Source: a virus. Taken from it: a stretch of 64,000 nucleotides of DNA. Within the stretch, counting starts at the first letter, position 1. Each line of letters opens with the position of its first letter. Location of the stretch: positions 12,403-76,402 of IMG/VR virus record IMGVR_UViG_3300027319_000002, one strand, 5' to 3'. The translations under genes and the position numbers were made by a program. Below the pieces are notes generated by a model, which saw only the letters and a program-made list of their open reading frames with translations, searched no databases and had not been told where the DNA came from. Positions 6,066 to 13,720 of the stretch are shown piece by piece.

Positions 6066-7343
6066 CTAGACGGCTTCGTTGATGGTCACCTGGACGCCGA
6101 GGGCGGTCAGCTCTGCCAGCAGGTCCTGGATCCGGGATTCGCGGTCCTTGGTGGCCTGTGCCGACGTGCCGTAGGTGAGGTAGTCCTGGGCGACGGCGGC
6201 GGCGCGGGCCCAGGCGGGCGGGATGGACTTGATGTAGGTCTTGTAGGTGGTCTGCACCGACTTGTGGCCCAGCATCTTCGACACAGTGGCCACGTCCACC
6301 TTCTGGACCATGTAGGTGGCGAAGGCGTGCCGGAAATTGTGAGCGGTGATGGCCTTGTCTTCCAAACCGGCTCGGATAACCGCCTTCTTCAGCTCACGGT
6401 CGAAGCTGCTGTTGTTGACCGGCAGGTCCGGAATCACATCCGAGGGGAAGAGGACCCCATTTGGGGGAATGTTGTAGGTCTCGATGTGGCGCTCAAGCTC
6501 CTCTCGTAAGAGGTTGCTGAGCGGAACGTGACGTCCCTCTCCTTCCTCAAAGTACTTCAGCGGTCCCCAGGACCCACTGTGGGTCCACTGGCGGTAGATC
6601 CACAAGCTGTCTTCCAGGATGCAATCCCGGCTGAAGCCGAGCATCTCACCCTCGCGCAGCCCGGCCCCGGCCATCAGGTAGATGGCGACGCGGAAGAAGG
6701 GATTGATGCAGTCCGCGATCTTGTGAATCTCTTCCACGGAGGGGATGTAGCGATCCGCGGTCGGAACCTTGCGCGTCTTCTGGCGATCGGCCGGGTTGTC
6801 TGCCCGCCAGCCGTCTTCTACGGCCTGACGGAAGATCGGGCCCAGGACGAACTTGATGAGGGTCTTGACCGTACCCTCATAAACGCCCTTCTCGTACATC
6901 TCGGTCTTCAGCCGCTCGATGTCGATCTTGGTGATCTTGTTGATCGGCTTGTCACCGAATGCGGGGAAGGCGTACGTCCGGAGGGCCGACATGTACTGCC
7001 TCCGGCTGTTGGGCCGAAGCTCCTCCTTACCGTCTAGCCACTGATTGGCGTATTGCTCGAAGGTCGGCATGTCGCCCTCAGGTGACACCACAGGCATGCC
7101 CTGGCGCTTCAGGCGCTCCTGGTAGTTGGCAGCCAGGAACCTTTCCATGTCCTGCTTGGTCAGGAACACCTTGTGGCGCTGCTTGCCTGTGATGGCATCG
7201 TAGAAGCGGGCCTCGATCTTGCAGTCGCAGCGTCGCTGATCCTTGTGCGTGCAGCTGCTGACTCGGCGCCACGATCCGAGCCCGCGGCCGAGGTTGAACC
7301 ACTTTGAGGCCCCGTTCGACTTTGAGGACCTGCTCGCGCCCAT
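6066..7343 (-). CDS. int: tyrosine integrase
   Basis: Catalytic set GLREGE (R), HNFRH (HxxR), LGH and YKTY (Y); SAM-like N-domain. Confidence 0.92.
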   Translation of the reverse strand: MGASRSSKSNGASKWFNLGRGLGSWRRVSSCTHKDQRRCDCKIEARFYDAITGKQRHKVFLTKQDMERFLAANYQERLKRQGMPVVSPEGDMPTFEQYANQWLDGKEELRPNSRRQYMSALRTYAFPAFGDKPINKITKIDIERLKTEMYEKGVYEGTVKTLIKFVLGPIFRQAVEDGWRADNPADRQKTRKVPTADRYIPSVEEIHKIADCINPFFRVAIYLMAGAGLREGEMLGFSRDCILEDSLWIYRQWTHSGSWGPLKYFEEGEGRHVPLSNLLREELERHIETYNIPPNGVLFPSDVIPDLPVNNSSFDRELKKAVIRAGLEDKAITAHNFRHAFATYMVQKVDVATVSKMLGHKSVQTTYKTYIKSIPPAWARAAAVAQDYLTYGTSAQATKDRESRIQDLLAELTALGVQVTINEAV

Positions 7344-9712: not shown

Positions 9713-11293
9713 ATGACGGACGAGAACATCGATTACGACGAGAACACCCAACTGACAGCTGAGGCCATCGACGGAGATTCTGCTATCGACGAGCTGGAAA
9801 TCCGGCTCGACGAGGTCACCAAGAAGACGGTCGACATGATCGTCGACAAGCTATTAATCGTCGTCGACGAGCTTTCCGGCCACCCGCTTTATCCCTACCA
9901 GAGGCCATTTGCGCGCCGGATCATCGAGTCCCTGGTTCTTGGTGACGGCGCGACGCTGACGGCACTATTCAGCCGTCAGGCGGGTAAGTCCGAGACAGTG
10001 GCCAACACCGTGGCCGCCTGCATGATTATGCTGCCTGCCCTGGCCAAGGTCTTCCCCTACCTGCTCGGCAAGTACAAGGAAGGGCTCTGGGTCGGCGCCT
10101 TCGCCCCCGTGGATGATCAGGCCGATAACCTGTATGGCCGTATCGTCTCCAGATTGACCTCTGAGCGGGCTCTAGAGCTTATGCAGGATCCTGATATCCA
10201 GGATGGGGTAAGGGCCCGCGGAAGGACGCTCACGCTTCATTCTGGGTCCCTTGTACGGCGCCAGACCTGTCACCCCCGGGCGATCATCGAGGGCCGGACC
10301 TATCACCTGATACTCATCGACGAGTGCCAGGGCGCCGACGACCGGATGGTTACCAAGTCCATCATCCCGATGGGCGCGGCGACCAACGCCACCTACGTCT
10401 TCACCGGAACGCCGACCTACACCAAGAACATCTTCTACCGGCAGATCCAGAAGAACAAGCGCAATCAGGTCCGGCGCGGCAAGCGGCAGCTGCACTTTGA
10501 GGCCGACTACCGGGAGGCGTCCAAGGCCAACCCGCTCTACCGGCTGCACTGTGAGAAGCAGAAGGAGGTGCTCGGCGAGGACAGTGACGAGTTCAAGCTG
10601 AGCTACCGCCTGATGTGGCTGCTCGAGCAGGGAATGTTCACCACCAGCGAGCGTCTGAACGCGCTCGGCGACAAGAGCATGCAGACGGTGAAGGCCTGGT
10701 ACCGTTCGCCCGTCGTGGTCGGCATCGACCCGGCCCGCAAGCAGGATTCCACCGTGGTCACCGTGGTGTGGGTCGACTGGGACCACCCCGACGAATTCGG
10801 GCTCTACGAGCACCGCATCTTGAACTGGCTGGAGCTGGGCGGCGGCATGTCCTGGGAGACCCAGTACCACCGCATCGTCGAGTTCCTCAGCAACTACTAC
10901 ATCCACGCCATCGGCATCGACACCGGCGGCGTGGGGGACGCGGTCGCCGACCGGCTCAAGGTCCTGATGCCCAACACCGAGATCGTCGAGCTGGGCAGCC
11001 AGCGGCCGGACCAGTCCAAGCGGTGGAAGCACCTGTATCAGCTCATCGACCGCGGAAAGATCATCTGGCCAGCGCACGCCAAGACCCGCTCCACCAAGGT
11101 CTACGAACGGTTCATCCAGCAAATGAGCGACTTGGAGCTGGAATACGTCGGGCCCTACATGCTGGCCAAGGCGCCCAATGAGGCCCACGCTCACGACGAC
11201 TTCCCGGACAGCTTGTCGATGGCCTGTATCTTGACCTCCGAGGACTATCACATGAAGGAGGTCGAGCAGAGCATCTCTCCATTCTATTCCTGA
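9713..11293 (+). CDS. terL: terminase large subunit
   Basis: Walker A SRQAGKS, Walker B ILIDECQ, nuclease GIDPA...DST and HDDFPDS. Confidence 0.93.
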   Translation: MTDENIDYDENTQLTAEAIDGDSAIDELEIRLDEVTKKTVDMIVDKLLIVVDELSGHPLYPYQRPFARRIIESLVLGDGATLTALFSRQAGKSETVANTVAACMIMLPALAKVFPYLLGKYKEGLWVGAFAPVDDQADNLYGRIVSRLTSERALELMQDPDIQDGVRARGRTLTLHSGSLVRRQTCHPRAIIEGRTYHLILIDECQGADDRMVTKSIIPMGAATNATYVFTGTPTYTKNIFYRQIQKNKRNQVRRGKRQLHFEADYREASKANPLYRLHCEKQKEVLGEDSDEFKLSYRLMWLLEQGMFTTSERLNALGDKSMQTVKAWYRSPVVVGIDPARKQDSTVVTVVWVDWDHPDEFGLYEHRILNWLELGGGMSWETQYHRIVEFLSNYYIHAIGIDTGGVGDAVADRLKVLMPNTEIVELGSQRPDQSKRWKHLYQLIDRGKIIWPAHAKTRSTKVYERFIQQMSDLELEYVGPYMLAKAPNEAHAHDDFPDSLSMACILTSEDYHMKEVEQSISPFYS

Positions 11294-11342
11294 AGGCCGT
11301 TTGGCTTATCCTGGAATTGACCCCCGTTCAGGAGTGTGAAGG

Positions 11343-11768
11343 ATGGCCTACTCTCCCACGAATTCCTCCCCGCTCGCCCCGGCGCCGCAGTACCCGGAGC
11401 GCATTTCGCCGGTGTACGAGGCGAAAATCGCGCCGAACGCTCCTGGTGGTAGAGGCCCGCTGCGTTTCCAGGAGGGTCTGGGTACTGACAGCGATGTGCC
11501 GCGCGAGTTCACCACCGGCATCATGCAGGGCTACATGACCGCGCCCGGCCGCACCAACCGGAATGCCGCGGTGTGGATTAAGCGCCCAGAGGAGACTCTT
11601 CAAGAGCGTGCTCACCCCGGCTCTTCCTCCTGGGTCATGGCGCCGACTTTCCTTGGCGAGTTCGCCTATGGCGCCCAGAGCGGTAACCGCGGTATGCCGG
11701 TTTATGAGACTGTGGTCCGGTCCGGAGGGTACTACACCCGCATGAACCCGGCCTACATCGACGACTGA
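11343..11768 (+). CDS. probable virion protein between terminase and portal
   Basis: GAAGGA RBS, synteny, coding-like composition. Confidence 0.7.
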   Translation: MAYSPTNSSPLAPAPQYPERISPVYEAKIAPNAPGGRGPLRFQEGLGTDSDVPREFTTGIMQGYMTAPGRTNRNAAVWIKRPEETLQERAHPGSSSWVMAPTFLGEFAYGAQSGNRGMPVYETVVRSGGYYTRMNPAYIDD

Positions 11769-11770
11769 TG

Positions 11771-11840
11771 TGCTATACTGCAAAGCTCGGATGAGCTGAG
11801 TCGTTCAGAAGGCCCCGGCCAAGTGCCGGGGCCTTCTTTC
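11771..11840 (+). ncRNA. candidate ~55-nt small RNA (extended -10 promoter plus terminator)
   Basis: TGcTATACT at 11771-11779; 12-bp stem 11808-11836 plus TTTC; no ORF in between. Confidence 0.4.
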
Positions 11841-11958
11841 ATGGACAGCCCAACTCTGAGGGTCTGGCATTATCATTCCACAGCTCCACACATCTACCCT
11901 GAAATGTGTAATGCCGGATGCGTCCGCTGACGTTGGCATTGAGGGGAGGTGATAGAGG

Positions 11959-13720
11959 ATGAGCATCGCGTTCTATCCGCCCGCTCAGCGATACGCCGGG
12001 GCCGATCTCGCAGTTACGATCAGCCCGCTAGGCCTCGTTGAGCTGGCGGATGAATTACGCCTCATCACCTCCTGAAGAGTTTGAAGTCCACGGGCCACGG
12101 CTCAACCGGTATGCGGTCAACTGGGCCTTCTATTTAGGCCACCACTACGCCTATCGGCGAGAGCCGGGCGAGCCGCAGCTGACCTTCAATTACTGCCGTG
12201 CTCTGGTCGACTTCCTCATCAATTTCTGCTATGGGCGCGGTGTCACTTTCCAATCGGCTAAAGAATACTCCCATATCGTCCCGGCCCTTTTGAACCGGGT
12301 GTGGGAGATGGATAACAACAAGCAGCAGATCATCCGCGAAATCGCTCAGCAGGGCGGTGTGTCCGGCGACATGTTCGTGAAAGTCGCCTACGATCCCGCC
12401 TGGACCGATCCAGCTGGCAACTACCACCCCGGACGGGTGCGAATCCTGCCTCTGAACAGCGCATATGTCTTCCCGGAGTGGCATCCACACGACCGGGAGA
12501 GGATGATCCGCTGTAAGATCAAGTACAAATTCTGGTCGACCACCCTCGAGGGTACTCGCTCGGTATTTACCTATACCGAGATCCTCACCGATGACACCAT
12601 CGAGGAGTACCTCAACGACGACCTGATCGACCGGCGCCCCAACCCGTTGGGCACCATTCCCATCGCTCACGCGCCGAACATCTCCGTATCCGGTTCCCCG
12701 TGGGGCCTGGCCGACATTCACGACCTGATTCCGCTCAATAGGCAGTACAACGAGACTGCTACCGAGATCGCGGACATTATCAACTACCATGCCGCCCCGG
12801 TCACCATCATCACCGGCGCCAAGGCGTCCAACCTGGAAAAGGGCCCCCGGAAGGTCTGGGGAGGCTTGCCGAAGGACGCCCAGGTCTACAATCTCGAAAA
12901 CGGCGTCGATCTGACCGGGCCCCTGGCCTTCCTCCAGCTGCTCAAGCGGGCCATGCACGAGCTTGCCGGTGTGCCGGAAACGGCGCTGGGGCAGGTTCAG
13001 CCGATTTCCAACACCTCCGGCGTGGCCCTTTCCATCGAGTGGCTGCCTGCCACGAACAAGCGCGCGGCGAAGCTCATTAACATGTCCGCTCTGCTGCAGC
13101 GGGTGAATGAGCTTGCCCTGCGGACGCTGTTTCTCTATGAGCCCGAGGCTTTGCGGTACAACCCCGATACCGACGGGATCATCGAAGAGGGCCAGCCCCT
13201 GGAAATCGACCCCAGGGATCCTCTTGTGTACCGCACCGAGTGCGTCTGGCCGGATGCCCTTCCGACGGATGCGCTGGTCAAGCTTAACGAGATTCAGGCG
13301 AAGATGGCCCTCGGCCTCGAATCCAAGCGAGGCGCTCTCCGGGAACTCGGTGTTGAATTCCCGGACGAGAAGATGGAGGAGATCTTCCGCGAACTCGTTA
13401 AGGACGCAAAGGAGCAGGGTGCGCTTGACATTATCAATGCGTACATCTCTGCTGCCATAATGCAGTTGACAGGGATGAACCCGGACGGTTCACCCCCGGA
13501 TCAACCCAACGCAGCACGCCCGCAAGACAGTAGCACTAACTCGAATCCCGCGGGTCAAGAAGCGTCGAGCGACCGGAGCACTAAACCGCGTGCTAATCCC
13601 ATCAAGAACGAGCTGACGCAGATGCTCGGCGCGGAAGCAGACCAAATCGCAGCAGATTTGGTGACACAGGCGTTTGGCACGAAGTTGCCACAGCGCCGAA
13701 ATCCGGACGCCGACCTTTAA
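11959..13720 (+). CDS. portal protein, interrupted by a 22-nt coding gap (12055-12076)
   Basis: Perfect GGAGGTGAT SD and ATG 11959 (MSIAFYPP...LGLVELADE), stop at 12073; the portal-like frame resumes EFEVHGPRLNRY; position between terL and scaffold/capsid. Confidence 0.88.
12052..12079 (+). other. candidate translational bypass site (take-off GAA, A-site UUA, landing GAA, resume GAG)
   Basis: GAA(12052)-TTA(12055)...TGA(12073)/GAA(12074); a hop of 22 nt rejoins the frames. Confidence 0.65.

Follow-up and report, generated by a model that had tools for sequence, protein, structure and literature searches.

A stretch of 64,000 nucleotides (nt) from the IMG/VR virus record IMGVR_UViG_3300027319_000002 (positions 12,403 to 76,402 of that record; hereafter the window) carries a portal gene that is split by 22 extra nt, and the insert is best described, from its anatomy, as a UUA-led translational bypass gap in an essential gene. 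The core of the gap is complementary to the extended Shine-Dalgarno (SD) sequence and spacer of the same gene, and the resulting helix dominates the predicted structure of the 5′ region of the messenger RNA (mRNA). The explanation tentatively preferred here is that this anti-SD core, in this lineage only, throttles initiation of portal translation; that the complementarity is a by-product without function is nearly as likely. The complementarity, its thermodynamic dominance in the predicted fold, the anatomy of the gap and the comparative pattern are results of the analysis; formation of the helix in vivo, a limiting effect on initiation and selection for that effect are inferences. The coordinates of the features can be found in Table 1.

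The 22-nt gap in the portal gene

The virus record is 92,984 base pairs (bp) long, about 95% complete and 63.9% G+C. The reading frame that begins at ATG 11959 has 38 codons and ends at UGA 12073-12075, while the portal body lies in the frame that is +1 relative to it, open from 12038 to 13720, with matches to Pfam family PF05133 (SPP1_portal; 7.6e-25) and to phrog_64 (4.6e-32). In more than 100 homologues (58-80% identity) both pieces form a single protein, M-S-I-A-F...SPLGLVELADEEFEVHGPRLNRYA, whose spacing does not vary, and the segment ...LVELADEEFEVHGPRL... belongs to a single reading frame in them. The ungapped loci L025-L028 consist of the flanks of the window's gap joined exactly, GAT GAA GAG TTT GAA GTC CAC GG, from which it follows that positions 12055-12076 are 22 extra bases. 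A hop from GAA to GAA past UUA gives back the conserved motif LVELADEEFEVHG exactly. Take-off and landing codons are matched, no GA dinucleotide occurs in the gap before the landing codon, TTA makes up about 1.3 of every 1000 codons of the genome, and a tRNA search that included tRNA-Leu(UAA) found no tRNA in the window or in the 93-kb genome.

Sequencing error as the origin of the gap was rejected because the same 22 nt were found in independent assemblies from nine studies. The phage type occurs with its gap unchanged in 20 sequencing runs of these nine studies, which sampled compost, sludge, manure, bioreactor and fertilizer; no RNA run is among those listed. Contigs from four of the runs have no indel or joint at the gap, and they differ by three single-nucleotide polymorphisms in 801 nt, none of them in the arms of the helix described below.

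In the proposed mechanism, peptidyl-tRNA-Glu would detach from GAA 12052-54 with the rare UUA still undecoded in the A site, and would re-pair with GAA 12074-76, so that GAG 12077 is decoded next and the junction peptide reads ...LVELADEEFEVHGPR. A long imperfect hairpin that ends at the take-off codon is a candidate for the 5′ stem-loop that would drive the bypass. The predicted fold of the N-terminal open reading frame (ORF) has an energy of -46.2 kcal/mol (z about -3.4 to -4.1) in the window, as against -21.9 kcal/mol (z +1.1) in the closest relative without a gap. While GAA occupies the P site, the ribosome would enclose the 3′ arm of the inner hairpin (12035-12051), and a slide of the mRNA by 22 nt would free this arm to pair with 11975-11991. 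Pairing of the exiting mRNA as the forward driver, the cessation of which allows backward scanning, has been proposed for gene 60 (bioRxiv 10.1101/2024.12.09.627546). GAA 12052-12054 can also pair with UUC 11971-11973, and ACG 12057-12059 with CGU 11969-11971, which would place the take-off site at the base of the inner hairpin.

Pairing of the gap with the Shine-Dalgarno region

The portal SD, GGAGGTGAT (11945-11953), is followed by the spacer AGAGG and directly by ATG 11959. According to the original prediction, made from the sequence alone, the gap is an antisense copy of this ribosome-binding site (RBS), 12060-12072 pairing with 11945-11958 around one bulge; this was confirmed by an inverted-repeat search, by folding and by pair probabilities. 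The search returned a perfect 9-nt inverted repeat (11945-11953 with 12064-12072), and beyond the bulged A 11954 there are four more pairs (11955-11958 with 12060-12063), the other end being closed by a terminal G-U pair (11944 with 12073). Positions 12064-12073 are identical to 10 nt of the established 3′ tail of 16S ribosomal RNA (rRNA; AUCACCUCCU).

The helix is present in both the minimum-energy and the centroid folds of 11930-12090 (-71 kcal/mol, z = -3.64, with none of 200 shuffles equally stable). Its pair probability depends on the length of the sequence folded: it is 0.98-1.0 for segments of 161 and 251 nt, 0.64-0.78 for one of 461 nt and 0.76-0.93 for one of 761 nt. It forms the outermost part of a rod of 130 nt, the inner 79 nt of which resemble the 5′ stem-loops that accompany bypass gaps in relatives; the inner hairpin extends to 12052 and is followed by a 7-nt internal loop. 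The mean unpaired probability of the SD region is 0.004-0.006, versus 0.25-0.27 when the flanks are shuffled (none of 40 shuffles was as low), and the predicted cost of opening the SD and spacer is 16.2 kcal/mol, compared to 7.0 if the gap is taken out and 9.6 if the anti-SD is put in reverse order, the contribution of the gap being about 9 kcal/mol. The further claim that the free mRNA hides its RBS is thus borne out in silico: the complement spans the SD and dominates the structural ensemble.

On both strands of the 64 kb, GGAGGTGAT is found at three sites only: the portal SD, the gap (in antisense) and 44012. Chance was assessed as the frequency of a complement of at least 9 nt to the 25-nt SD region, which is 5e-4 for random inserts of genome composition and 8e-4 for real 15-mers taken from the window. 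The energy of the SD:gap duplex is -24.6 kcal/mol versus a shuffle mean of -12.7 kcal/mol (P = 0.003). The unusual feature is the length of the perfect match, not burial of the SD alone.

Junction variants in related portal genes

A variable-gap DNA pattern over the conserved codons detected interruptions of this kind in many other phage contigs and in genomes of Streptomyces and Kitasatospora, and false positives (L039, L049, L058, L064, L066, L068-L072) were removed by eye. The pattern scan of genome contigs returned no match to the exact GAATTA form, and a metagenome scan for long gaps returned mostly unrelated matches and one new 10-nt variant (L073). The gapped set, in which the junction lies in the LVELADEEFEVHG codons, consists of L001, L036-L038, L040-L045, L047, L048, L050, L052-L054, L056, L059-L063, L065 and L073. 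Including that of the window, 18 distinct junctions were counted, at three neighbouring codons, and their inserts measure 7, 8, 9, 10, 14, 16 or 22 nt; the other 17 belong to related phages and to prophages of Streptomyces or Kitasatospora.

Nearly all of the variants are composed of a codon X, then TTA, TAG, ATA or AGA, a few bases, and X again, as in GAA[TTAT]GAA, GAA[TAGT]GAA, GAG[TTACC]GAG and TTC[TAGCGA]TTC, and a skip from X to X restores the ancestral peptide. Take-off and landing codons are matched without a cognate triplet between them in 12-13 of the 17 sibling variants. A mismatch of one base between the two codons was observed in four variants. All three 10-nt inserts end in GAT, which suggests landing on GAU. 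A patch close to the gap is identical in the window and L001 at 35 of 37 nt; it might have been transferred, although high-GC codon bias could account for the resemblance. By these features the gap of the window is apparently a further case of UUA bypass as described for the terminase of phiHau3.

The siblings bear directly on the possibility that no hop takes place, and that the portal is produced either by +1 frameshifting at GAA-UUA-C, with seven extra residues (YASSPPE), or from ATG 12050 of a broken gene. Frame 2 is open from 12038, so no stop codon blocks a +1 shift in this lineage, the sequence GAATTAC is common to the window and L001, and gene callers place the start of the protein at ATG 12050 (P0003). 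However, +1 frameshifting is incompatible with several sibling gaps, namely the 8-, 14- and 16-nt inserts (among which are +2 shifts), an in-frame 9-nt insert with a stop codon, and a variant in which a target-frame stop adjoins the codon at which decoding would resume, on its 5′ side. The spacing of LVELADEEFEVHG is invariant in the more than 100 homologues, and none of the 18 junctions is a translated insert of 3n nt without a stop; hence the motif appears intolerant of extra residues here. ATG 12050 lacks an SD and falls within the hairpin. The upstream ORF retains its ATG and strong SD and is under purifying selection in gapped lineages (ratio of nonsynonymous to synonymous polymorphism, pN/pS, about 0.3). 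Considering also that the phage circulates widely, expression without a hop is very improbable.

Leaders and N-terminal sequences of gapped genes

The 5′ regions of 144 unique portal loci (L001-L195) were compared, of which 26 are gapped and 118 ungapped among the matches listed, and the counts and means that follow refer to these. The SD 9-mer of the window's portal, GGAGGTGAT, is present without mismatch in 21 of the 26 gapped regions but in only 5 of the 118 ungapped regions; four more gapped and five more ungapped regions match it at 8 of 9 positions, which brings the regions with at least 8 matches to 25 of 26 and 10 of 118, respectively. In portal 5′ untranslated regions the 9-mer is usually followed by GCC and then ATG. 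A phylogenetic tree of the portal body implies at least nine changes in the presence of the gap (seven on well-supported branches), and in seven independent pairs the strong SD accompanies the gap in 6-7 and the opposite holds in none (median sign-test P about 0.03). The extended SD could offset a low yield of bypassing, or could act mechanistically.

Gapped genes also have a more structured N-terminal ORF, with a mean z of -2.05 versus -0.53 for ungapped genes (Mann-Whitney P = 2e-6, uncorrected for phylogeny). The gapped ORF is the more structured in eight of ten nearest-neighbour pairs, among which the window provides the largest contrast, and the window has both the longest gap and the most stable 5′ structure of the family. 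The SD has an unpaired probability of at most 0.06 in 11 of 25 gapped genes, with differing partners: codons 3-5 or upstream CCUC elements. The gapped L037 and the ungapped L181 are 99.7% identical over 3.2 kb except from +1 to +118, where there are about 30 substitutions, all synonymous, and a 7-nt insert. Because the difference is confined to the N-terminal ORF, the recoded ORF and the gap are inherited as one cassette, which has been swapped and in which the RNA differs but the encoded protein is unchanged.

Other peculiarities were observed upstream of gapped portal genes. In L038, only 5 nt separate the portal start from the end of an HNH endonuclease gene on the minus strand (6469-7014; phrog_3377, 1e-50). 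The leader of the gapped L045 (compared with L178) and L041 (compared with L101) is longer by about 70-100 bases, and the added sequence contains a GAGGTT...AACCTC hairpin; the 3′ arm of this hairpin might pair with the SD instead. In L053 and L059 the region before the portal start shows the arrangement GAGGG...CCTCC...GGAGG.

Possible roles of the pairing

The best duplex between each distinct junction and the SD region of its own gene was computed, and the window type alone stands out. The 17 other variants have no significant gap:SD pairing, their longest Watson-Crick matches being 3-6 nt with P values of 0.1-0.95 (about 0.1 for L001 and L073, 0.38-0.95 for the remainder). The only other variant with a CCTC motif is L001, in which the gap sequence ACCUCGA pairs with UCGAGGU directly downstream, leaving the landing codon in the loop, and the SD pairs locally with codons 3-5. 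The expectation that gapped relatives would keep the complementarity thus failed in all 17 cases, and the idea that the pairing is part of the bypass mechanism found no support. Pairing is evidently not a general requirement for bypass at this site, and the SD:gap pairing of the window is, on the comparative pattern, a lineage-specific extra outside the hop mechanism.

Several observations weigh against a role of the pairing in initiation. Besides being confined to one lineage, it is made by two arms that are invariant among the copies of that lineage (type A, 99.4-99.9% identical) and so offer no covariation as a sign of selection. Shuffles that change only the order of the gap's bases attain a complement of at least 9 nt in 1.6e-2 of cases, and 9% of shuffled gaps still bury the SD, rates which indicate that a C/U-rich gap opposite a purine-rich SD is partly predisposed to pairing. 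About 4% of the candidate SDs of this genome are predicted to be equally buried, the SD would be mostly paired even without the gap (unpaired probability 0.18), and a duplex of 9-10 bp between the SD and 16S rRNA could compete with the helix of 13-14 bp.

Nearly as likely as a role in initiation is that the complementarity has no function and is merely tolerated, having arisen through base composition by accident or been left behind by a templated insertion (by fold-back or template switching). Avoidance of GA triplets, which would prevent early landing of tRNA-Glu, would make the gap pyrimidine-rich, the SD is a purine-rich consensus of 9 nt, the region is already a long quasi-palindrome, and the 17 other junctions presumably work without such pairing. 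No better score (P = 0.0155) results when the 3′ flank is aligned with the reverse-complemented 5′ flank. When reverse-complemented, the gap agrees with the family-typical leader AGGAGGTGATG over 11 nt, a longer match than to its own leader, which is compatible with an inverted copy of an ancestral leader. The gap of L001 repeats, in inverted form, the 7 nt that immediately follow it. On the other hand, the low frequency of such complements among random inserts argues against accident. The four pairs past the bulge make use of the phage's own unusual spacer AGAGG, in place of which relatives have GCC, and so look as if they had been adjusted once the insert was in place. A search of the window and of the whole 93-kb genome for a second copy of the gap sequence that could have acted as template found none.

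A throttle on initiation is tentatively preferred. The pyrimidine-rich core of the gap would mimic the 3′ tail of 16S rRNA and pair with the gene's own extended SD, and the outer helix would most likely throttle initiation on the finished mRNA, the SD being free only before the gap is transcribed or while a ribosome occupies approximately 12045-12085. Loading would then be sparse or in bursts, with a lowered density of ribosomes, and sparse loading would let the 5′ hairpin refold behind each hopping ribosome. Polysomes are reported to bypass less well than monosomes because of attenuation of the 5′ stem-loop (O'Loughlin 2020, cited in PMC10732093), and gene 60 work is reported to connect a lower ribosome density with better bypass. 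A more far-reaching version, in which the gap, by imitating the 16S tail, controls access to the RBS of its own gene, so that initiation occurs only co-transcriptionally or with a ribosome on the gap and ribosomes are spaced for the hairpin to refold and drive each 22-nt hop, is unlikely. If it were true, one non-coding insert would set both the frequency of starts and the efficiency of bypassing, and the output of portal protein would be tied to the host's supply of UUA-decoding tRNA.

The original prediction went further, to a switch in which the helix shuts the RBS and a ribosome stalled at GAA-UUA specifically licenses the next initiation, coupling the availability of UUA-tRNA, bypass and loading. 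A ribosome whose P site is at 12052-54 would have 12060 to about 12067 in its mRNA channel and would melt the helix, which is strong enough to matter, and a stall-dependent sensor has been proposed for phiHau3 (PMC10732093). However, any ribosome at about codons 25-45 would open the helix, so that a stalled one is not specifically needed, and a second ribosome behind the stalled one would melt the 5′ hairpin, which gene 60 work is reported to link to lower bypass. The hidden RBS of the predicted switch stands in silico, but the pairing is conserved in no other gapped lineage, and a switch in its full form is rather improbable.

Nor is it at all probable that the outer helix belongs to the bypass machinery, by extending the pairing of the 5′ stem-loop just past landing, blocking backward scanning and aiding the first translocations. 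The rod is continuous from the inner hairpin to the SD:gap helix, the longest gap of the family coincides with its most stable 5′ structure, and pairing of exiting mRNA is the forward driver proposed for gene 60 (bioRxiv 10.1101/2024.12.09.627546). Yet the anti-SD arm would not emerge from the ribosome until 3-4 codons past landing, by which time the frame should already be held by codon-anticodon pairing; therefore it is unlikely to power the hop, and the 14- and 16-nt gaps have no such extension.

Surrounding features

A perfect hairpin that precedes the portal gene may be a terminator poor in U residues, leaving a leader of 120 nt; it was not scored by a simple terminator scan, and a simple promoter and terminator scan of 11300-12300 detected nothing. 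An Rfam scan of 11000-13000 gave only chance matches below threshold and none above the gathering score. Between the terminase and portal genes lies a gene of 141 amino acids (11343-11768) with the motifs RGPLRF-EG and ERAH-GS, which is kept in all relatives examined and has no Pfam or PHROG match. It was considered as a gap-linked endonuclease and rejected, being conserved in gapped and ungapped relatives alike. Within the portal gene, homology of 99.4% to L002, L006, L007 and L022 stops abruptly at 13049. These four loci encode a portal of 635 amino acids (P0042) with a different C-terminal part, which identifies 13049 as a mosaic junction.

Table 1. Features of the portal locus, in coordinates of the window.
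Feature	Position	Strand	Remarks
Perfect 13-bp hairpin	11807..11837	+	3′ of the upstream 141-amino-acid gene; from inverted-repeat search
Extended SD and spacer	11944..11958	+	5′ arm of the outer helix
N-terminal 32 portal codons, ATG to proposed take-off codon	11959..12054	+	Frame 1; matched by the N-termini of more than 100 homologues
Long imperfect hairpin in the N-terminal ORF	11974..12052	+	Core arms 11975-11991 and 12035-12051; 3′ arm adjoins the take-off codon
Proposed take-off codon GAA (Glu32)	12052..12054	+	Ungapped GAT GAA GAG TTT is read directly in L025-L028
Putative coding gap, 22 nt	12055..12076	+	Starts with rare UUA (12055-12057), finishes with landing GAA
Anti-SD arm, CCTCATCACCTCC	12060..12072	+	Pairs with 11945-11958
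0-frame UGA stop	12073..12075	+	Overlaps the landing codon; would terminate a 38-amino-acid product if UUA were decoded normally
Proposed landing codon GAA	12074..12076	+	Decoding would resume at GAG 12077
Portal body, SPP1 Gp6-like	12077..13720	+	Frame 2; PF05133 and phrog_64 matches

Comparison with known systems

To our knowledge, only a handful of cases of natural translational bypassing have been described, namely those of T4 gene 60, of yeast mitochondria and, as proposed, of the phiHau3 terminase. The portal site described here offers a natural variant series, with 18 junction types, shifts of 7-22 nt, near-identical gapped and ungapped siblings, and a recoded N-terminal cassette that accompanies the gap. 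The variant of the window is the longest, and the sole one whose gap pairs with the initiation site.

Smith et al. 2013 proposed UUA bypass for the large terminase gene of Streptomyces phage phiHau3 and of two prophages, and the proposal found support in Antonov et al. 2023 (PMC10732093), with a 5′ stem-loop and SD signals as suggested stimulators. Both the phiHau3 gene and the portal gene of the window are essential genes for virion assembly or packaging in high-GC actinophages, both have a short non-coding insert led by a rare UUA within a hyper-conserved peptide motif, the frame is restored solely by skipping the insert, and a 5′ stem-loop and SD interaction are the proposed stimulators. 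In contrast to phiHau3, the interrupted gene is that of the portal, where bypassing is predicted from sequence; the gap is 22 nt rather than 7-10 nt; and it complements the gene's own initiation SD over 13 nt, a feature unreported for phiHau3. In the literature searched there was no report of UUA bypass in a portal gene and, as had been anticipated, none that combines an anti-SD, bypassing and a coding gap.

In T4 gene 60, a bypass of 50 nt is associated with a mobA cassette (Huang 1988; Manning and Atkins 2022, bioRxiv 10.1101/2022.08.31.505936). The likeness consists in matched take-off and landing codons, a poorly decoded codon in the A site, a 5′ stem-loop whose 3′ arm would be within the ribosome at take-off, and cassette-like inheritance (L037 and L181), and the HNH gene upstream of the L038 portal recalls mobA. 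In contrast, the window has no evident take-off hairpin, and no endonuclease gene adjoins its portal gene. Whereas the SD-like GAG of the T4 gap pairs with 16S rRNA and guides landing, the gap of the window mimics the 16S tail and would be unable to pair with the ribosome.

Sequestration of an RBS by downstream coding RNA is familiar from the Min Jou interaction of MS2, the fold-back inhibition of IS10 and the early transcripts of T4 gene e. In these systems, as predicted for the window, the SD is masked by a complementary stretch further downstream and becomes accessible when that stretch is translated or passed over by ribosomes; the difference is that the complement of the window resides in a stretch of the same gene, about 110 nt downstream, that would go undecoded. 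If the pairing is not functional, it is an example of an apparent regulatory helix that arises when a C/U-rich spacer faces a consensus SD. If it is functional, it would constitute a new variant of UUA bypass and the first bypass gap with a second job in the control of initiation, and would provide a direct route to testing ribosome spacing as a limit on the efficiency of bypassing.

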